DNA from: Patescibacteria group bacterium
GTDB lineage: Bacteria; Patescibacteriota; Patescibacteriia; CAIXNZ01
DNA: 64,000 nucleotides
NCBI GenBank assembly: GCA_028714455.1
Contig: JAQTMG010000001.1
Coordinates: 568-64,567 of the forward strand
Reading direction: 5' to 3'
This document shows, piece after piece, positions 4,999 through 62,290 of this stretch (within the stretch, counting starts at the first letter, position 1; each line of letters begins with the position of its first letter). Both the position numbers and the translations under genes were made by a program. The notes beneath the pieces are model-generated. The model did not search any database. It worked only from the letters and a program-made list of their open reading frames with translations, and was not told the DNA's origin.

Positions 4999-5075
4999 TG
5001 GTCGGGCTGGTGGGACTCGAACCCACGATCTCTTGGTCCCAAACCAAGCGCGATAGCCAGCTTCGCTACAGCCCG
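4999..5075 (-). tRNA. tRNA-Pro (anticodon UGG), CCA encoded
   Basis: Manual cloverleaf: acceptor CGGGCTG/CAGCCCG, anticodon loop TTTGGGA, T-arm GTGGG-TTCGAGT-CCCAC. Confidence 0.85.
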
Positions 5076-5220
5076 ACCCGTTAATTAAGGATTGTAGCAT
5101 AAATTAGTCAAGCTGTCAATGGGGCGGAATAGTAACTTTTAATTATTCACAAATTATTGACAAGAGAGAAAAAAGGCGCTAAGATAAAATATCAAAATAG
5201 AACCTTAACAAGGAGGTAAA

Positions 5221-27207: not shown

Positions 27208-27456
27208 TTACTTGCGAATGGCCAGGAACCGCCAACTGCCAAGCCACTTACTGTCAACATTGTTCCAGTAGAGGTTGAGCTTGCGCTTGCCATCATTGAA
27301 GACCAGGCACGGACAGTTACGATTGCCGTTGTCATTGACCCAGACCGAGCCGAGATTATACAGAATACCGCCAAAGCCACTGCCCATTGAGTACTCTCTG
27401 GACTGTATTTTATGCGGGAGCATCCTCCCTTGATATTCTGTACCAAGTATTTTCAT
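27208..27456 (-). CDS. short paralog (83 aa; possible pseudogene/remnant) of the C-terminal Cys/Trp-rich domain, ...WRFLAIRK
   Basis: GSVWVNDNGNRNCPCLVFNDGKRKLNLYWNNVDSKWLGSWRFLAIRK aligns with C-terminus of 27682..28296; GC-rich; own extended -10 promoter and ~150-nt leader. Confidence 0.45.
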   Translation of the reverse strand: MKILGTEYQGRMLPHKIQSREYSMGSGFGGILYNLGSVWVNDNGNRNCPCLVFNDGKRKLNLYWNNVDSKWLGSWRFLAIRK

Positions 27457-27681: not shown

Positions 27682-28296
27682 CTACTTGCGGACGGCCAAG
27701 AAACGGCAACAGGCACCCCAATGACCGTCACCACCGAACCAATAGAGGAAGAGCTTGCGCTCGCCATCAGTGAAGTTCAGGTACGGACAGCTACGATTGC
27801 CGAAGGCATCGACCCAGACCGAGCCGAGAGCGACGATCGGAAACTCCCGTTGAACATCCGGGTTGGCCGCTCCAAAGGCGAGCAGGTGTTCAATGCTAGC
27901 CGGCTTAAGACCCAGACCGTCAAGATGCGCCAGCGCTTCTTTGGTCGTAGCGTCTTTGTTGAGATGAACCAGAACCAATTCGGCTTCTTGCTGACCGACG
28001 CCCTGGACAGGAAAGTGCTTGTCGCTGATGTCGTCATTGACCCAGGCATATTTGCCGAGCTTGATCATCTCGGTGAGCGTCTTGCCGTAGTCCACGACCA
28101 CTCTGTAGGTGTCGCTGGCTTTTTGCCGGCCGAACATGATCAGTTCGGCAACCTGCTTGACCAACTTGCTGTCAGTGAGCAGGCGGTGCAGATCGTCGTC
28201 GCCGCCGCCCAATTCCAGGACGGCATTTGTGATCGCTTGCATTATGGACCACATTTTGCCGGCGGCCTTCAAAAACTCGCTTTTCTTTCTTGCCAT
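27682..28296 (-). CDS. hypothetical protein (204 aa) with C-terminal Cys/Trp-rich domain ...HWGACCRFLAVRK, GC-rich
   Basis: Strong SD aaaggaggatttgacaATG; the mirror-image plus-strand ORF 27634..28323 lacks ATG/SD and is rejected. Confidence 0.6.
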   Translation of the reverse strand: MARKKSEFLKAAGKMWSIMQAITNAVLELGGGDDDLHRLLTDSKLVKQVAELIMFGRQKASDTYRVVVDYGKTLTEMIKLGKYAWVNDDISDKHFPVQGVGQQEAELVLVHLNKDATTKEALAHLDGLGLKPASIEHLLAFGAANPDVQREFPIVALGSVWVDAFGNRSCPYLNFTDGERKLFLYWFGGDGHWGACCRFLAVRK

Positions 28297-28650: not shown

Positions 28651-28729
28651 CGTAGTTTCCGCCAGAGGCGGACCACGAATCGAGCTTTGCTCTGGTTCGT
28701 GGCAATGGATATCAAAAAATTAACACCTG
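28651..28729 (+). repeat. tRNA-Arg-associated leader element, copy A (identical to copy B at 60670-60752)
   Basis: CCGTAGTT + TCCGCCAGAGGCGGA hairpin + CCACGAA-N16-TTCGTGG hairpin + CAATGGATA (tRNA D-loop sequence) + TCAAAAAATTAACACCT, directly abutting tRNA-Arg 5' end. Confidence 0.7.
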
Positions 28730-28801
28730 TCCTCGTAGTTCAATGGATAGAACAAGAGCCTTCTAAGCTCTGGATTGGGGTTCGATTCCTCACGGGGACA
28801 T
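28730..28801 (+). tRNA. tRNA-Arg (anticodon UCU), no encoded CCA
   Basis: Acceptor GTCCTCG/CGGGGAC, D-arm GTTC-AATGGATA-GAAC, anticodon arm AGAGC-CTTCTAA-GCTCT, T-arm TGGGG-TTCGATT-CCTCA. Confidence 0.85.
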
Positions 28802-28906
28802 CAGTGGTTCTCGGCCAAAGGCTGATCCGCCTCTGGCGGAGATTCCTGGCGGGGTCATAAGGAGATTCGAGTTTCGTGCAAGAGCAAGAGAAATAAAAAT
28901 AAAAAT

Positions 28907-29251
28907 ATGTTTGATTTTGAAAAACTTGAAGTTTATAAAAAAGCCAAAAATATAAATGTTGAAATTTCGGAATTTTTAAAATCTGCAAATGTAGATATTT
29001 TCCTGAATAATCAGTTGAAAAGAGCTTCGTTAAGCATATTATTGAATATTGCGGAAGGTAGCGGTAGATCAACAAAAAGAGATAAAAGAAATTTTTTTGT
29101 CATTGCTCGCGGTTCGGTCTTTGAGTGCACTTCAATTTTTGATCTATTATTCACAGAGAAAGAAATTGAAATTGAAAAATATAATTATTTTTACAATCAG
29201 CTTGAAGAGATTTCAAAAATGCTATACGGTCTAATCAAAACTCATGAATAA
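28907..29251 (+). CDS. four-helix-bundle protein (23S rRNA intervening-sequence / Avd-like family)
   Basis: 114 aa; KLEVYKKA...LKRASLSILLNIAEGSGRSTKRDKRNFFVIARGSVFECTSIFDLL pattern of TIGR02436-type proteins; flanked by inverted GCAAGAG-rich repeats (28883-28895 / 29256-29280). Confidence 0.75.
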   Translation: MFDFEKLEVYKKAKNINVEISEFLKSANVDIFLNNQLKRASLSILLNIAEGSGRSTKRDKRNFFVIARGSVFECTSIFDLLFTEKEIEIEKYNYFYNQLEEISKMLYGLIKTHE

Positions 29252-29288
29252 ACTCTTGCTCGTATCTCTCGTCTCTTGCTGATATCAT

Positions 29289-29360
29289 GGCGGGTATAGT
29301 TTAACGGTAGAACAGCGGGTTGTGGTCCCGTTGGCCTGGGTTCAACTCCCAGTACTCGCC
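29289..29360 (+). tRNA. tRNA-His (anticodon GUG) with encoded G-1, no CCA
   Basis: G-1 pairs with discriminator C73; acceptor GCGGGTA/TACTCGC; anticodon loop TTGTGGT; T-arm CTGGG-TTCAACT-CCCAG. Confidence 0.85.
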
Positions 29361-43628: not shown

Positions 43629-43995
43629 GAAAAGTCCTCCTTTACTTTGTTGATGTTAATATATTGAAATTAATTCGATAAGTCAAGCTTGACTTTTGTT
43701 ATATTTTAGCTTATTATAATAGTAATCCCGAAAGGGATTTTGTTTTTTGAGAATAGGTATTAGGTAATAGTTATTAGGAAATGGAATAAATTTCTTATCG
43801 CCAATACCTATTGCCAAATACCCAATATCCAGCACACCGCCTTCGTCCCGAACTATATCTCGCTTTGCTCAATAAGTTCGGGATAAATCTAATGGTTAGC
43901 CATAGTCCGCCGAAGCACGAAGTGCGAAGGCGGAGACACCGCGCTTTTCCGCCAGAGGCGGACCCGCCTACGGCGGGCAATGCGGTTAAATAAAT

Positions 43996-44250
43996 ATGTA
44001 TTATTTATATATTTTAAAAAGTTTAAAAGACGAAGGATATTATATTGGAATTACAGATAGCACCCTAGATCGACTCAAGGAACATAATCAGGGCAAGGTA
44101 AGATCGACAAAAAGTCGCAGACCATTTATCCTAAAATATTCTGAAAATTATAATACAAAAACTGAAGCAAGAGAAAGAGAGATTCAGCTGAAAAGAAACT
44201 GCAAAATCCGCAAAGAACTTTTACTAAAACTGAAATTTAGTGTTAAATAA
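43996..44250 (+). CDS. GIY-YIG nuclease family protein (84 aa)
   Basis: MYYLYILKSLKDEGYYIGITDSTLDRLKEHNQG — GIY-YIG motif. Confidence 0.8.
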   Translation: MYYLYILKSLKDEGYYIGITDSTLDRLKEHNQGKVRSTKSRRPFILKYSENYNTKTEAREREIQLKRNCKIRKELLLKLKFSVK

Positions 44251-44257
44251 ATATCAC

Positions 44258-44329
44258 GCCGCCATCGTCTAATGGTTAGGACACCGCGCTTTCAATGCGG
44301 TAATCGGGGTTCGATTCCCCGTGGCGGTA
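44258..44329 (+). tRNA. tRNA-Glu (anticodon UUC), no CCA
   Basis: Acceptor GCCGCCA/TGGCGGT (G1.U72), D-arm GTCT-AATGGTTA-GGAC, anticodon arm CCGCG-CTTTCAA-TGCGG, T-arm CGGGG-TTCGATT-CCCCG. Confidence 0.8.
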
Positions 44330-44578
44330 CTTGTCCACAGTTGTCATTCTTTCAGTTGAATTTTTCCCCCGAAAAATTCTAACATCATTTGCCAGGCAGT
44401 ACTATTAAAAACCCCGCGACTATCTCGCGGGTTTTTTATTCTTGACAAAATTAAAAAATTTTGTTAAAATAATCTATCGTTCATTGATAAAAAAGACTGT
44501 TTAAACAGTTTTAATAAATATAAATAAAAGATTTTGTGATGGGTGCCAAAACGCATTCCTAGCCATAAGGAGGAACTG

Positions 44579-48925: not shown

Positions 48926-49100
48926 CTTGAATTTTTAAAAAAATTAAGCTAAAATAAAGAAAACTTACCATTGGTAAGTTTTTCTATTGCAACATTGGGT
49001 TCGGCTTGAAAGCCCAGCCTAAGTAAGCATCGCACTGATCGTATTTTTAGCATAATCTAATTTTCACGAAATGAAGCATGAATACATAAACTTGCAACTG

Positions 49101-49133
49101 GGCCACTTAGCCAAGCAGTAAGGCAAGGATCTG
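49101..49133 (+). pseudogene. degenerate 5'-half copy of tRNA-Cys
   Basis: GGCCACTTAGCCAAGCAGTAAGGCAAGGATCTG vs genuine GGCCTGATAGCCAAGTGGTAAGGCGAGGGTCTG 20 nt downstream. Confidence 0.5.
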
Positions 49134-49153
49134 TCTGCCTACGCAATTTCTGC

Positions 49154-57643: not shown

Positions 57644-60223
57644 TTATATATCAAATTTTTTATAAAGTATTCTTTTGGCGATCTCGGCCGCTGCGTAATA
57701 GAAAATCAGCACAAAGAAAATCATGATCAAAACGCTTATCGGCATATTGGTGAAGCCGAAAAAACTTCGACCAAAGCTCGTATAGGTAATAAACAAGGCA
57801 AAGGCGACAACCAGAAACACCGCGATAAACAAAGATTTGCTCGGCCGGCTTTTGTAAAACGGTAATTTGCTGCGCAAGAAAAAAATCACGATGATTTGAG
57901 AAAATGTCGATTCGACAAACCAAGCCGTCCTGAACAAATCAATACTGGCTCTAAAAATAAAAATCAGAAAACCGATCGTGATCAAATCGAAGATTGTACT
58001 GATGGGTCCGAAATAAAGCATGAATCGCGAAATAAGTTTGATGTTCCAGCGCTTTGGCTTTCTGACAAATTCATCGTCAACATTATCAGTGGAAATGGTC
58101 AGCATCGACATGTCGCTCAAAAAATTATTTAACAAAATCTGCGAAGGCAATAAGGGCACGAAAGAAAACCAGAAAGAAGAAAGCGCAACAGTCATCATGT
58201 TGCCATAATTAGAACTCACGGTGTTCAAAATATATTTGGTGATATTGCCAAAAGTTTTTCTGCCTTCGGTTATACCTTCGGCCAAAACCCTCAAGCTTTT
58301 TCGCAGCAAAATAATATCAGCCGCCTCTTTGGCAATACTGGTGCCGGTGTCAACTGAAATGCCCACGTCCGCGGCCTTAAGAGCTGGCGCGTCATTAACA
58401 CCGTCGCCTAAAAACCCAACAATGCGGCCTTCCTTGTTCAGACTCGTAACTATTTTAAATTTTTGTTCGGGCGTGGTACGCGCGAAAATATTATATCTAT
58501 GACTATATTCTTCAAACTGCTGCGGATTTAATTTATCAAGATCTTCGCCCAAAATTATTTTATTTTCAACAATCGACAAGCCAACTTCCGAACATATCTT
58601 TTGAGTCACGACGGCGCTATCGCCGGTGATAATTTTTATGTCCACGCCCAGCTCGTTAAATTTACGCAAAGCCTCCTTGGCCGTCTGCTTGGCCGGGTCC
58701 AAAAATAACAGGAAGCCGACCAATGTTAAGTCCTTTTCATCAACAACTTCGGCCGCCTCTTTTTTTATTTGTTTTTTGGCCACGGCAATCACGCGATAGC
58801 CGCTCTTTTCATAATTTACCACTCGTTCATTAAATTCCGCTTTTAGCTTGGCATCTAGGCTTCTCTTCTCGCCTGATATCTCAATATTAGTGCTTACTGA
58901 TAAAACTGACTCGGGCGCGCCTTTGACTAAAAGATCTAGTCTATCCCCGTCTTTGGTCACAGAACTCTGCCTCTTTCTCTCAAAATCAAACTCTATTTTA
59001 TCCAGACAAACCATTTTACCCAAAACCAGCTCCAGTTGCTTTACGCCTTCGTTATCCCAGATAGCTTTATCGAGTGGGTTGGTGAAAACCTTGTGCTTGG
59101 CTTTTATATCAGCTGAATTGCAAATAAGTCCGTAGAGTAAAATCTTACTATCCCGCTGGCCATTCCAATCTATGTAATCAATTAAAGAAATTTTCCCTTC
59201 GGTCAAGGTGCCTGTCTTGTCACAGCAAAGTGTATCAATGTTGCCAAGATCTTCCACGGAAATCAAACGCTTAATAATTACCATTTTTTTGGACATTCTC
59301 ACGGCGCCGGAAGAAAGAGCAATCGTAATAACCAGAGGTAGTAATTCTGGCGTTATGCCGACGGCCAGGGCCAGGGAAAAAAGTAAAAAATCAATTATAC
59401 TTTTTCCTAAAAGCACATTGCCCAAAAAAATAAAGACGGCCATTGATAAAATGACCTTGAGTAAAAAATTACTAAATTTTTTGATATTTTTTTGAAAGTC
59501 CGTTTCGTTTTTTTCCTGCAGATATTTTGAGGTCTCGCCAAAAAAAGTATTCTTGCCTGTTGCCACGACCACGCCGTTGCCAGAACCGCTGGAAACAGAA
59601 GTCCCCATAAAAGCCATGTTATGCAAATACTGCGGCACGGAATATTGTTTAGAGACCACAGTCACCTCTTTTAAAACTGGCAATGATTCTCCAGTTAAAA
59701 CCGATTCATCTGTTGTCATGTCCTTTAATTCAATCAATCTAATATCAGCCGGGATTACATCGCCGATATCTAGATAAACAATGTCGCCGGGTACTAACTC
59801 TTTTGAATCAATTTCAGCAACCTGCCCGTTTCTTAAAACACGCACTTTTAGAGTTAAATATTTTTTCAACGCCTGTAAAACTTTTTCAGCTCTATATTCT
59901 TGAAAAAAACTTAAACCCGCGCCAAGAAAAACCATCAGCAAAATAACCGCCGCGCTAAGATGTTCTCCCAAAAAAAAGCTGACTACCGCAGCCACGGCCA
60001 GAATCAGCACTAATGTACTTTTAAATTGTCTAGCAAATATTTCCCAGACTCTTATCTTCTCTCTTTCTTCAATCGCATTTTTGCCATAGCTTAAAATTCT
60101 GGCCTGGACATCTTTTGTGGTCAGCCCGCTCGTACTCGTATTTAAAAAACTAAGCACTTCCTTTATTGGCAGCGCCCAGATTATCGGTTTTTCTTTAGCT
60201 ATTTGTACCTTGTCATCCGCCAT
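57644..60223 (-). CDS. cation-transporting P-type ATPase (MgtA/Ca-ATPase-like, type II/III)
   Basis: LCCDKTGTLTEGK phosphorylation motif, TGES, GDGVNDAPALKAADVGIS, 10 TM helices. Confidence 0.9.
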   Translation of the reverse strand: MADDKVQIAKEKPIIWALPIKEVLSFLNTSTSGLTTKDVQARILSYGKNAIEEREKIRVWEIFARQFKSTLVLILAVAAVVSFFLGEHLSAAVILLMVFLGAGLSFFQEYRAEKVLQALKKYLTLKVRVLRNGQVAEIDSKELVPGDIVYLDIGDVIPADIRLIELKDMTTDESVLTGESLPVLKEVTVVSKQYSVPQYLHNMAFMGTSVSSGSGNGVVVATGKNTFFGETSKYLQEKNETDFQKNIKKFSNFLLKVILSMAVFIFLGNVLLGKSIIDFLLFSLALAVGITPELLPLVITIALSSGAVRMSKKMVIIKRLISVEDLGNIDTLCCDKTGTLTEGKISLIDYIDWNGQRDSKILLYGLICNSADIKAKHKVFTNPLDKAIWDNEGVKQLELVLGKMVCLDKIEFDFERKRQSSVTKDGDRLDLLVKGAPESVLSVSTNIEISGEKRSLDAKLKAEFNERVVNYEKSGYRVIAVAKKQIKKEAAEVVDEKDLTLVGFLLFLDPAKQTAKEALRKFNELGVDIKIITGDSAVVTQKICSEVGLSIVENKIILGEDLDKLNPQQFEEYSHRYNIFARTTPEQKFKIVTSLNKEGRIVGFLGDGVNDAPALKAADVGISVDTGTSIAKEAADIILLRKSLRVLAEGITEGRKTFGNITKYILNTVSSNYGNMMTVALSSFWFSFVPLLPSQILLNNFLSDMSMLTISTDNVDDEFVRKPKRWNIKLISRFMLYFGPISTIFDLITIGFLIFIFRASIDLFRTAWFVESTFSQIIVIFFLRSKLPFYKSRPSKSLFIAVFLVVAFALFITYTSFGRSFFGFTNMPISVLIMIFFVLIFYYAAAEIAKRILYKKFDI

Positions 60224-60464
60224 ACATATCCAAATAATTGTAAAAGTGAATTATTTCTGTTATTATTAACTAAAAATTACGGGAATATTTTGTATTCCGC
60301 AGCTGCTATACTAATTATATACGTTTATTGATAGGTAATAAAGTTAATAAGTTCCAGTATCATCATGGAATTAAATGCGCATATTTCTGTTTTATGTTTA
60401 TATAGCGACACATATTTTTAACTAAAATTAGATAAAAATTGTAATTTAGGCATATTTTAATCAT

Positions 60465-60488
60465 AAATTGTTTCACGTGAAACAATTT
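60465..60488. promoter_or_regulatory. 24-bp perfect palindrome AAATTGTTTCACGTGAAACAATTT
   Basis: Seen directly; candidate operator upstream of tRNA cluster. Confidence 0.35.
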
Positions 60489-60548
60489 TCATGTTTTTGA
60501 AAACAATATATATAAATTTCCCGACTGGATTTGAACAATATCAAATTC

Positions 60549-60600
60549 GAGGGCCAAGAAATATATAGCCCTCGGGCAGATACAAGTTTATGTATAATTA
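60549..60600. repeat. ~50-bp repeat unit (GGCCAAGA...GGGCAGATACAAGTTTATGTATAATT), copy 1
   Basis: Paralogous to 60852-60890 and 60897-60935; inverted copies at 60655-60676 and 60990-61008. Confidence 0.6.
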
Positions 60601-60669
60601 GCAATAATCGTATTTAACGTTAAATCGATAAGTGCGATTATAATTCAGGCCTTACGCAGACTTGTATCT

Positions 60670-60752
60670 GCCCTCGTAGTTTCCGCCAGAGGCGGACCAC
60701 GAATCGAGCTTTGCTCTGGTTCGTGGCAATGGATATCAAAAAATTAACACCT
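60670..60752 (+). repeat. tRNA-Arg-associated leader element, copy B (100% identical to copy A core)
   Basis: GCCCTCGTAGTT (tRNA nt 1-12) + 45-nt double hairpin + CAATGGATA (D-loop) + TCAAAAAATTAACACCT, then the complete tRNA. Confidence 0.7.
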
Positions 60753-60824
60753 GCCCTCGTAGTTCAATGGATAGAACAAGGGACTCCTAAGCCTTAGATG
60801 GTGGTTCGATTCCTCCCGAGGGCA
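60753..60824 (+). tRNA. tRNA-Arg (anticodon CCU), no CCA; two stem mismatches
   Basis: Acceptor GCCCTCG/CGAGGGC perfect; D-arm identical to tRNA-Arg(UCU); anticodon loop CTCCTAA; A31.G39 and T51.T63 mismatches. Confidence 0.6.
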
Positions 60825-60851
60825 TTAAATTGTGTATAATTGGCCAAGATA

Positions 60852-60935
60852 AAAAAGGGGCCAGCCCAGATACAAGTTTGTGTGTAGGCCTAAGAAAATG
60901 GGCCTGCCCCGATAAAAGTTTATGTGAAAAATAGT
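60852..60935. repeat. repeat units 2 and 3 (..CCCAGATACAAGTTTGTGTGTAGG.. / ..CCCCGATAAAAGTTTATGTG..)
   Basis: Direct repeats after tRNA-Arg; unit 3 is inverted partner of the sequence abutting tRNA-Ala. Confidence 0.55.
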
Positions 60936-61002
60936 TTTATGCATTGTTTGTATTGCGTACGAAAAAATACGCTTCAAACATTGAGCACACAGACTTTTAT
61001 CG

Positions 61003-61075
61003 GGGCCGCTAGCTCAGCTGGTAGAGCGCTTCCATGGCATGGAAGAGGCCAGGGGTTCAAGTCCCCTGCGGTCCA
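61003..61075 (+). tRNA. tRNA-Ala (anticodon GGC), no CCA
   Basis: G3.U70 identity pair; D-arm GCTC-AGCTGGTA-GAGC; anticodon arm CTTCC-ATGGCAT-GGAAG; T-arm AGGGG-TTCAAGT-CCCCT. Confidence 0.8.
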
Positions 61076-61140
61076 AAGCGAAATTAACATAAAATTGCTC
61101 AAAGTATAAACGGGCCTGCCCGCCAAAGCTTTGCGAAGGC

Positions 61141-61214
61141 GGGCAATTAGCTCAGCTGGTTAGAGCGTACGATTCACATTCGTAAGGTCACTGGTTCAAT
61201 TCCAGTATTGCCCA
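61141..61214 (+). tRNA. tRNA-Val (anticodon CAC), no CCA
   Basis: Acceptor GGGCAAT/ATTGCCC; anticodon arm TACGA-TTCACAT-TCGTA; T-arm ACTGG-TTCAATT-CCAGT. Confidence 0.8.
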
Positions 61215-61216
61215 AT

Positions 61217-62290
61217 ATGTCATTATCAATAGGCATTGTCGGTTTGCCCAATGTTGGCAAGTCCACAATATTCAATTCATTAACGCGCCAAAAGGTGGAT
61301 AGCGCCAATTATCCATTTTGCACCATCAACCCCAATGTTGGCTGTGTTAAGGTACCGGATTCTCGTTTAGATCAGCTAACAGTGATGTCAAAATCCGAAA
61401 AAACCATTTATTCGACCATGGAGTTCATTGATATCGCTGGCCTAGTACGAGGAGCTCATAAAGGCGAGGGGCTTGGCAACCAATTCTTGACTAATATTAG
61501 AGAAACTAGTGCTATTTGTCATATTTTGCGACACTTCGTTAACCCAAATATCGTCCATGTTGAGAATAGAATTAACGCCAAAGACGACTTGGACATTATA
61601 AATATTGAATTAATAATGGCTGATTTGCAGCAGATCAATAAAAAGCTGGAGTCTCGAAAAGACACTGATTTATCAGAACTCAAGCCGTTATTACAAAAAG
61701 TTAAAATTAACCTTGAGAATAATGCGTTAATAAAAGATCAGGATCTTACCGAAGATGAGTTAACCTTGCTTAAGCAATTCAATTTTTTAACTTCTAAGCC
61801 CTGTCTTTATGTTTTTAATGTAGCCGAAATTGATATAAACAAAACTCCGGAACAAATTTTAAAAGAAGCTAATTTGAATCTAGACCCCAAAAAAGTTATT
61901 ATAGTTTGTGGCAAAATGGAAGAAGAACTTTCGCAACTTCCAGAGAATGAAGTGAAAGAATATTTACAAAATTTAAATATTTCACAGACCGGTCTGGAAA
62001 AAATGATTATTGCCGGCTATAAATTATTGAATTTGATTTCCATGTTAACGACTGGGCCGAAAGAAACCAGGGCCTGGGAACTGATAAATGGCCTGAAAGC
62101 GCCTCAAGCGGCCGGCAAAATCCACACGGATTTTGAAAAAGGTTTTGCGCGAGTAGAAGTAATCAACTGGAAAACATTATTGGATTGCGGCAGCTGGACC
62201 AACGCCAAGGAAAAAGGATTGATTAGAATTGAAGGCAAAGAATATCTGATGAAAGACGGCGACACTGTTGTTTTTCATTTTTCCGATTAA
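61217..62290 (+). CDS. ychF: ribosome-binding ATPase YchF (Obg family)
   Basis: MSLSIGIVGLPNVGKSTIFN, C-terminal TGS domain; start at ATG 61217 (ORF-track TTG 61208 overlaps tRNA). Confidence 0.9.
   Translation: MSLSIGIVGLPNVGKSTIFNSLTRQKVDSANYPFCTINPNVGCVKVPDSRLDQLTVMSKSEKTIYSTMEFIDIAGLVRGAHKGEGLGNQFLTNIRETSAICHILRHFVNPNIVHVENRINAKDDLDIINIELIMADLQQINKKLESRKDTDLSELKPLLQKVKINLENNALIKDQDLTEDELTLLKQFNFLTSKPCLYVFNVAEIDINKTPEQILKEANLNLDPKKVIIVCGKMEEELSQLPENEVKEYLQNLNISQTGLEKMIIAGYKLLNLISMLTTGPKETRAWELINGLKAPQAAGKIHTDFEKGFARVEVINWKTLLDCGSWTNAKEKGLIRIEGKEYLMKDGDTVVFHFSD

Follow-up and report, generated by a model that had tools for sequence, protein, structure and literature searches.

A palindromic, hairpin-forming repeat element of about 100 nt, named E here, was found to abut the 5' ends of tRNA genes in a 64,000-nt stretch of DNA from a Patescibacteria group bacterium (contig JAQTMG010000001.1, positions 568 to 64,567; further referred to as the window) and in many other genomes. 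E has a conserved stem that includes tRNA bases and flanks that are specific for the abutted tRNA, it is polymorphic in its insertion and it is located in transcribed leaders. It is set apart by its exclusive placement at tRNA acceptor sequences of at least eight amino-acid families and by a stem that borrows the first bases of the tRNA. Taken jointly, the propositions that E derives from an insertion, that its arms form a stem in the leader of the precursor tRNA (pre-tRNA) which is cut by RNase III, and that selection keeps these arms have, in our estimation, about an even chance of being correct.

The repeats are concentrated around 60.5–61.0 kb of the window, where the original prediction had already noticed them. 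The 15-nt core GATAMAAGTYTRTGT occurs in this region on the + strand at 60579, 60869 and 60911 and on the - strand at 60654 and 60987, and a sixth copy with two mismatches is located at 49084 (-); 0.99 copies were expected by chance, and six were reached in none of the 100 shuffles. The three direct copies indeed align over approximately 50 nt. Two complete elements were delimited, E-A (60574–60673) and E-B (60906–61006), plus a solo left arm and a fragment of an arm, with no further arm copies in the 64-kb window. Their arms, 21 nt each, are 86% complementary and 58 nt apart in E-A (60574–60594/60653–60673) and 90% complementary and 59 nt apart in E-B (60906–60926/60986–61006), and the interior between them is AT-rich. 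The folding energies of -54.0 kcal/mol for E-A (z -8.65) and -51.6 kcal/mol for E-B (z -7.34) were matched by 0/200 shuffles. Open reading frames (ORFs) of 43–61 codons overlap the region, none of them being contained inside an E, which is small and non-coding. Tandem Repeats Finder gave no array in this region, the 42-nt modules being either too diverged or too few, and an Rfam search of 59500–62000 (E-value <= 10) recovered three tRNAs as the sole matches and no family for E.

Copies in other genomes, sampled as partial sequences with the relatives labelled L001–L108, were sought in public metagenome contigs by a pattern demanding both arms, a spacing of 45–70 nt and 22 fixed bases. The scan resulted in 20 hits at 19 loci. 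An arm ending 1–3 nt from the start of a tRNA or pseudo-5'-tRNA leader was seen in 18 of these hits, and the hit in L102 looks like chance; the tRNAs encountered were those for Arg (CCU, UCU, GCG), Ala (UGC, GGC), Ile, Leu (CAA, UAA, GAG), Met, Lys and Phe. A covariance model, R1, built from 20 copies and run on the same loci, added six more: before Leu, Met and Gly (twice), a decayed one in L082 and one at tRNA-Ser. Covariance scores of the window elements were 86 bits for E-A (E-value 2.8e-17) and 96.3 bits for E-B (E-value 9.9e-20). The total of 26 copies consists of 18 at a tRNA 5' end, six at a pseudo-tRNA leader, one at the 3' end of tRNA-Ser and one unassigned; the 24 copies at 5' ends belong to tRNAs Arg, Ala, Ile, Leu, Met, Gly, Lys and Phe. 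The core-to-core span is 88–92 nt, and polarity relative to the acceptor-like sequence was identical in 26/26 copies. This includes the antisense copy in L098 (1901–2013), the sole one at a tRNA 3' end (tRNA-Ser UGA, with a duplicated CTCCG(C)): the sequence that it meets on the opposite strand, GGAGAGG, equals the 5' strand of that tRNA, and its orientation is equivalent.

The carriers of E are Patescibacteria: YchF from the window shares 100% identity with a protein listed by NCBI under "Patescibacteria group bacterium", and the closest named relative according to YchF is a Candidatus Falkowbacteria metagenome-assembled genome. No contig was retrieved by an exact look-up of this YchF. Relatives fetched via YchF were dominated by Clostridia and mostly uninformative, L001 and a few Patescibacteria being the informative ones. 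The same two-arm scan of a viral contig collection yielded no E copy, and Rfam searches of L086–L104 produced tRNAs and rRNAs as the sole matches. Literature searches gave no description of this element, nor of a bacterial repeat placed in such a manner at tRNA starts. In L094 (1–247, - strand) E is followed by GGGCATGTGTACATT, a tRNA-like 5' fragment with no called tRNA, and then by a stretch with long-range pairing, which includes two ATTCCGGGT(T/G)G motifs and runs off the contig. RNase P RNA was suspected downstream of this copy from a GGAAATTCCGGGT motif and was rejected, with no match in Rfam.

From 5' to 3', the layout often starts with a small hairpin, followed by 1–3 nt complementary to the tRNA start, the left arm with the consensus (C)CAGATAMAAGTYTRTGT, an AT-rich interior, in general of 45–50 nt, the right arm ACAYARACTTKTATCTGG and the tRNA, which begins after a leader of 1–3 nt. 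In half of the copies the arms can be told apart, with the far arm of the AAGTTTATGT type and the near arm of the AAGTCTGYGT type. Across 20 copies, 93.8% of the cells in the 21-bp stem were paired, compared to 23–49% in slid controls, and the observed pairing and covariation were reached by 0/500 column shuffles. Eleven pairs are invariant, in part since the search pattern fixed them, the informative pairs being those left free by the pattern: alignment columns 9/110, where a tRNA base takes part in the pair (GC 9, CG 5, UA 5, AU 1), columns 12/107 (AU 16, CG 4) and columns 17/102 (AU 14, CG 4, UA 1). Compensated arm variants, GATG/CATC and GTTA/TAAC, were also present in model-found copies. 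The earlier suggestion of hairpin-forming units around each tRNA was thus borne out by a covarying stem that recurs at tRNA 5' ends. The possibility that CCA in the left arm is an encoded tRNA 3' end was discarded, since 4/20 copies have CCC instead, compensated by a G in the opposite arm.

The stem reaches into the tRNA itself. It extends exactly 5 bp past GATA/TATC in 22/24 copies and takes in tRNA nt +1 to +3 or +4, except at Met and Gly, where only nt +1 to +2 are covered. The mean extension was 4.9 bp, compared to 2.4 +/- 0.3 bp with flanks swapped between elements (0/2000 permutations). The far side of E is likewise specific for the abutted tRNA: a direct repeat of the first 5–8 nt of this tRNA is followed by 1–3 nt complementary to the tRNA start and then by the arm. 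The direct repeats (GGACGTGT for Ile, GCCGAGG for Leu, GCCCTCG or GTCCTCG for Arg, GGGCC for Ala, GCCAG for Met and GCGGG for Gly) had a mean length of 5.6 nt, compared to 3.5 +/- 0.25 nt with swapped flanks (0/2000 permutations). The repeat often belongs to a small hairpin, of which it makes up the 3' strand; the loop is AT-rich and the hairpin adjoins E with no spacer, as at 60548–60574, 60841–60863 and 60886–60905 of the window and also in L087, L089, L093, L101 and L104. The 1–3 complementary nt at the far junction may have arisen by "palindrome correction" during template switching or have been selected because they add two GC pairs. A guide sequence of the IS200/IS605 type was rejected as an explanation of these bases, which differ from one target to the next and so could not have been part of the element beforehand.

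As to the transcription context, four E copies are located between 16S rRNA and tRNA-Ile on the same strand, the whole hairpin thus being within the precursor RNA. RNA in the tRNA-sense folded better than the antisense in 17/24 copies (mean -3.1 kcal/mol, Wilcoxon p 0.0045), including the window elements with -54.0 vs -47.5 kcal/mol for E-A and -51.6 vs -47.3 kcal/mol for E-B, and the non-Watson-Crick cells of the sense strand were 27 G.U vs 13 A.C. Consensus scans of the window and 24 E copies found no -35/-10 hexamers, spaced by 16–18 nt, at a fixed position, loose matches being present in 14/24 sense and 12/24 antisense strands. Because there is no fixed -35/-10 pair and both strands match equally, E is not the promoter of the abutted tRNA genes. 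The tRNA-Pro/Gly operon of the window is preceded by a TTGACA-17-TACAAT sigma-70 promoter (5075–5130, - strand), which ends 10 nt upstream of tRNA-Pro and indicates that ordinary promoters drive at least some of the tRNA operons here. The original prediction of growth by duplication of promoter-plus-tRNA-end modules was therefore not supported for the promoter part.

Upstream of the tRNA-Arg(CCU) operon, outside E, a palindrome TGTTTCACGTGAAACA unique in the window is present at 60469–60484. This palindrome (TGTTYCACGTGRAACA) precedes tRNA-Arg(CCU)-Ala-Val-ychF in eight genomes (window, L001, L082, L086, L093, L105, L106 and L108); in those without E it is 16–17 nt away from the tRNA or leader, and in those with E the element separates it from the tRNA. 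The palindrome region may be an operator or promoter. A conserved motif TTACGACAC is located about 80 nt farther upstream of TGTTYCACGTGRAACA.

Filled, decayed and empty sites were recognized by comparison of related genomes. The loci after tRNA-Ser in L098 and L103 are syntenic: L098 has both E and a second CTCCG(C), and L103 has neither, a difference that has the look of a target duplication. The empty Ser site of L103 (3600–3700) contains instead an unrelated AT-rich hairpin, ACAATTACGATAACAATAAC..GTTATTGTAATCGTTATTGT. At tRNA-Gly, E is present in L101 and L091 and the site is empty in L088. At the Arg(CCU) locus, for which the YchF-based sample was drawn independently of the arms, the window has an intact E and L082 a decayed one (37 bits), and none is present in L081, L001, L105, L106 and L108; E is also intact at this locus in L086 and L093. 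The distance from tRNA-Arg to tRNA-Ala is 177 nt in the window and 4–6 nt in L081, L082, L086 and L093. The window spacer consists of an arm fragment, a hairpin with a solo arm and a hairpin with E-B, each with a GGGCC copy, which makes it a tandem series of hairpin-plus-left-arm modules missing from the relatives with the short spacer; in this respect, local duplication as originally predicted was substantiated. The solo arm and the arm fragment are read as products of repeated insertion or tandem duplication followed by deletion.

The arms are nearly identical in all copies, unlike the interiors, whose identity between copies, including those from the same genome, was at the shuffled background (0.60 +/- 0.04), with the exception of the Ile copies among themselves and of two adjacent copies in L089 (0.75). 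No near-identical multi-copy set was met within one genome, the genomes being partial. Arms were intact in 5/7 of the model-found copies. Because the arm sequence was kept while the interiors drifted almost to background, the arms appear to be maintained; this comparison speaks for old copies whose stem is under continuing selection, and against recent copying.

According to the reading favored here, E would have entered by a transposition-like insertion at an acceptor-stem sequence, as suggested by the filled and empty sites and the flanking direct repeats. A short target duplication would have kept the tRNA intact, and presumably only those insertions survived in which the duplication restored the tRNA. 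Within the precursor (pre-tRNA or pre-rRNA), pairing of the arms would give a stem of 21 bp, with tRNA nt +1 to +3 or +4 included in it. Double-stranded RNA of about 21 bp is a standard substrate of RNase III, and the length of ~20 bp or more within a transcript that characterizes such stems is predicted for E, including the four copies in the 16S-tRNA-Ile spacer. An RNase III cut of the stem would release the tRNA from the upstream RNA, leaving a short leader, and RNase P, probably acting after RNase III, would complete the 5' end of the tRNA. Selection on the stem would keep the arms. If so, E would be a bacterial repeat tied by its position to the 5' border of a wide variety of tRNA genes, and pre-tRNA maturation in streamlined uncultured bacteria would routinely proceed via a long leader stem, with the order of RNase III before RNase P being testable.

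Several points weigh against this reading. The RNA stem, its cleavage and the benefit for the host are what we infer from the features described above. The E copies are related to one another, and the p-values overstate their independence and are hence generous. The strict pattern of a single metagenome scan biases the sample toward intact arms, and with 22 arm positions fixed the arm conservation in those 20 copies is partly a matter of ascertainment. The sense-strand excess of G.U could stem from transcription-linked C-to-T mutation instead of selection. The dissimilar interiors within one genome show no sign of recent transposition, the decay in L082 and the absence from several relatives make E dispensable at a given locus, and direct repeats of 5–8 nt combined with 1–3 complementary nt before the far arm are not the product of a simple staggered cut. 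Finally, no transposase or autonomous element with E ends was found in the window, the viral contigs and the partial genomes. As for ascertainment, it is not the whole explanation, because neutral arms diverged to the extent of the interiors would be missed by the 22-base pattern and because most of the model-found copies have intact arms; moreover, the covariation and flank statistics rest on positions left free by the pattern.

A more elaborate role, which we regard as unlikely, is that E together with the upstream acceptor copy acts in cis as an RNA checkpoint or control on tRNA 5' maturation common to many tRNAs of the lineage. The stem would then lock tRNA nt +1 to +4, the decoy strand would pair with the 3' acceptor strand of the tRNA, and cleavage of the stem by a double-strand nuclease would be needed to release the pre-tRNA from this alternative fold. 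The same insertion origin with no role at all, i.e., a selfish or neutral miniature inverted-repeat transposable element (MITE) whose RNA hairpin is tolerated as RNase P trims the leader, is rather unlikely, although it accounts for the presence, decay and absence at orthologous loci, for flanks resembling target duplications and for the antisense copy at the tRNA-Ser 3' end, which is unable to serve 5' processing. A dead copy should, however, decay evenly, which is at odds with the maintenance of arms and of pairing with tRNA bases next to interiors near background, with the intact arms in copies found by the model and not by the fixed pattern, and with the better fold of the sense strand. 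The conservation could alternatively be exerted at the DNA level, E being a palindromic protein-binding site or a tRNA promoter module. The constant distance to tRNA +1 would be natural for such a site, -10-like hexamers (TAAAAT, TCTAAT, TATAAT) have a slightly higher mean best score on the side near the tRNA (4.0 vs 3.4), and the interior has a third GATAA-like motif. Against these stand the results of the hexamer scans on both strands, the ordinary sigma-70 promoter of the same genome and the copies inside the rRNA operon transcript; besides, the outer pairs vary with the tRNA yet remain complementary, indicating a need for nucleic-acid pairing and not for protein recognition. We consider this explanation improbable.

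Mobility is dispensed with altogether if template switching produced, locus by locus, an inverted copy of a conserved leader motif located upstream of tRNAs, and if the resulting palindrome later grew into the flank by extension and "correction". Extra complementary nucleotides, 1–3 in number, are precisely what quasi-palindrome correction is expected to leave, and a different hairpin of the same layout is present before tRNA-Val. This in-situ origin, however, requires that arms of 21 nt, a spacing of 45–50 nt and the same boundary arose independently at more than eight kinds of tRNA, and it leaves the far-side direct repeat and the antisense tRNA-Ser copy with its duplicated CTCCG unexplained; relatives with the right-arm leader motif alone at many tRNAs, which would support it, were not seen among the sampled loci, decayed copies aside. 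Its probability is accordingly even somewhat lower. The small invertible DNA switch put forward in the original prediction, with 21-bp inverted repeats bounding a short segment, is in practice dismissed: the polarity toward the tRNA is fixed in 26/26 copies, the arms are distinguishable in half of them, the interior is itself palindromic and would be changed little by inversion, and 48–59 bp between the arms is very short for looping during recombinase-mediated inversion.

E has several features of MITEs, i.e., terminal inverted repeats, a size below 300 bp, absence of coding sequence and insertion polymorphism between related genomes. The Correia/CREE (NEMIS) elements of Neisseria and other bacterial MITEs (RUP, ERIC, RPE) are non-coding multi-copy sequences of ~100–150 bp with terminal inverted repeats of ~20–26 bp, and those of the Correia type are co-transcribed with neighbor genes and form an RNA stem that is bound and cut by RNase III (PMC2649163; PMC10969869). 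E resembles the Correia elements in size, terminal repeats, co-transcription and the predicted RNase III stem. In contrast to them, which target TA sites all over the intergenic DNA, E borders exclusively on tRNA acceptor sequences, its stem takes in tRNA bases and its flanks consist of 5–8 nt of tRNA sequence plus 1–3 complementary nt. A 2024 review of prokaryotic MITEs nowhere mentions tRNA. The likeness to REPINs (paired REP units mobilized by RAYT) lies in two inverted units of ~20 nt placed ~50–70 nt apart in a hairpin of ~100 nt, with the units conserved and the spacer not; the arms of E, however, have no conserved internal hairpin, and the copies are not scattered in extragenic space. 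No RAYT gene was seen beside E or flanked by its arms in the sampled loci. A 173-aa Y1_Tnp (IS200/RAYT-type) gene is present in L108 (1242–1763), which has no E copy, and a TnpB-like gene adjoins a Cas1 gene in L082 (1–1165), not near an E copy.

With the RNase III stems of rRNA operons and the rRNA intervening sequences E would share the principle of a long stem within a stable-RNA precursor that is removed without harm to the mature RNA. ORF-bearing insertions of the intervening-sequence type (23S_rRNA_IVP and GIY-YIG ORFs) are also present next to tRNAs in these genomes. However, the classical processing stems pair both flanks of one rRNA and the intervening sequences replace an rRNA helix, while E is a self-contained leader hairpin overlapping the tRNA 5' end. 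Integrative elements targeting tRNA genes are likewise flanked by a partial tRNA duplicate that keeps the gene intact, but these span kilobases, bring their own integrase and draw on the 3' part of a single specific tRNA, whereas E duplicates 5–8 nt from the 5' end of any abutted tRNA. A placement such as that of E was otherwise found described only for eukaryotic retrotransposons: Ty3 and Dictyostelium TRE5-A insert at a fixed and very short distance upstream of many tRNA genes, a safe haven in a compact genome. Those retroelements are autonomous and find their targets through RNA polymerase III factors, in contrast to E, a 100-nt bacterial palindrome with its junction within the first bases of the gene.

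In the window, the tRNA cluster containing both complete elements (all features on the + strand) begins with the hairpin H-A (60548–60574), identified by sequence and minimum-free-energy fold and composed of CGAGGGC, a 13-nt AT-rich loop and GCCCTCG. Its 3' strand, 60568–60574, is a direct copy of tRNA-Arg nt 1–7 (DR-L). The original prediction had described it as a reverse complement of the 3' acceptor of tRNA-Arg within copy 1, which is correct and equivalent, as the reverse complement of the acceptor 3' strand equals a direct copy of the 5' strand. E-A follows, and its last 4 nt (GCCC, 60670–60673) are at the same time the start of a pseudo-5'-tRNA-Arg leader of 82 nt (60670–60751), recognized by homology with 28651–28757. 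The inverted copy at 60655 thus does not run into tRNA-Arg(CCU), as had been claimed, but meets GCCCTCGTAGTT (60670–60681), which opens this leader; the tRNA starts at 60752/60753. For tRNA-Ala the same claim was correct, the inverted copy running into the gene at 61003. E, the pseudo-tRNA leaders and GC-rich hairpins can mislead tRNA boundary calls, as happened in this case, and they account for much of the "unannotated" DNA around tRNA genes of the candidate phyla radiation.

The leader consists of tRNA nt 1–12, two GC-rich hairpins (60682–60696 and 60697–60726), a D-loop copy CAATGGATA (60727–60735) and an AT-rich linker. It is followed by tRNA-Arg(CCU) (60753–60825; ARAGORN, Rfam 62.1 bits), the inner left-arm fragment TTGTGTATAATT (60830–60841; repeat alignment) and the module 60841–60884, with the hairpin TGGCC..GGCCA at 60841–60863, which contains a GGGCC copy (60858–60862), and the solo left arm at 60864–60884. 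This arm, which is copy 2 of the original prediction, is devoid of a partner right arm and could form base pairs, across tRNA-Arg, with the right arm of E-A. Next to it is the hairpin H-B, AGGCC..GGCCT (60886–60905; sequence and fold), whose 3' strand includes GGGCC (60900–60904), a copy of tRNA-Ala nt 1–5. The last 4 nt of E-B are tRNA-Ala nt 1–4. tRNA-Ala(GGC) (61003–61075) and tRNA-Val(CAC) (61141–61214), both detected by ARAGORN and Rfam, complete the series, with ychF located 3' of the latter. A leader hairpin of tRNA-Val (61112–61145) with the stem TGCCCGCC/GGCGGGCA has an E-like layout, with a GGGCC copy ahead and tRNA-Val nt 1–5 within the stem; it is short, GC-rich and unlike E in sequence. 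It is common only to L081 (3870–3929), where the loop is larger.

A second pseudo-tRNA-Arg leader is located at 28651–28727 (+ strand) before tRNA-Arg(UCU), with only a CAGACT trace of an E arm ahead of it. Both leaders, taken with the first 30 nt of the respective tRNAs, differ in a single mismatch over 107 nt, compared to ~75% likeness in the rest of the two tRNAs. Homologous leaders with the same layout and different hairpins are present in L081, L082, L093, L098 and L105, where the tRNA-like parts track the tRNA of the genome to which they belong. Interpretation of the leader as a permuted or split tRNA or as a D-loop intron was rejected, since the tRNA that follows is complete and the piece ahead of it goes no farther than the D loop. 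A probable decayed E (49012–49104, + strand) was recognized by the core copy with two mismatches and a weak covariance match (18 bits, E-value 0.4). Its right arm ATACATAAACTTGCAACTGGGC adjoins a pseudo-5'-tRNA-Cys copy (49101–49145) upstream of tRNA-Cys (49154), and a possible pseudo-3' fragment with a hairpin insert is located on the other side of it, at approximately 48997–49025.

The window also contains a second repeat family consisting of GC-rich hairpins CCGCC-N3-GGCGG at 28659, 28827 (-), 43949 and 60683 (four exact copies vs 0.05 expected), with variants at 43910, 43962 and 61120, all of them within pseudo-tRNA pieces or beside tRNAs. In the region 43836–44330, a pseudo-5' half of tRNA-Glu is broken by three GC-rich hairpins, and an 84-aa GIY-YIG ORF (43996–44247; Pfam PF01541) is located between this half and the intact tRNA-Glu (44258). 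GC-rich hairpins and a small ORF, GIY-YIG-like by eye only, are present between tRNA-Pro and tRNA-Gly in L101 (2860–3230), L088 (10640–11040) and L091 (11590–11990); the corresponding gap in the window is 20 nt. Between tRNA-Arg(UCU) and tRNA-His of the window (28803–29290), a 114-aa 23S_rRNA_IVP (four-helix-bundle) ORF (28907–29251) is flanked by the inverted repeats GCAAGAGCAAGAG and CTCTTGCTCG, like an rRNA intervening sequence in a tRNA operon. Finally, a direct repeat of 147 nt with 80% identity is present at 27209–27355 and 27683–27829, the two copies being 474 nt apart.

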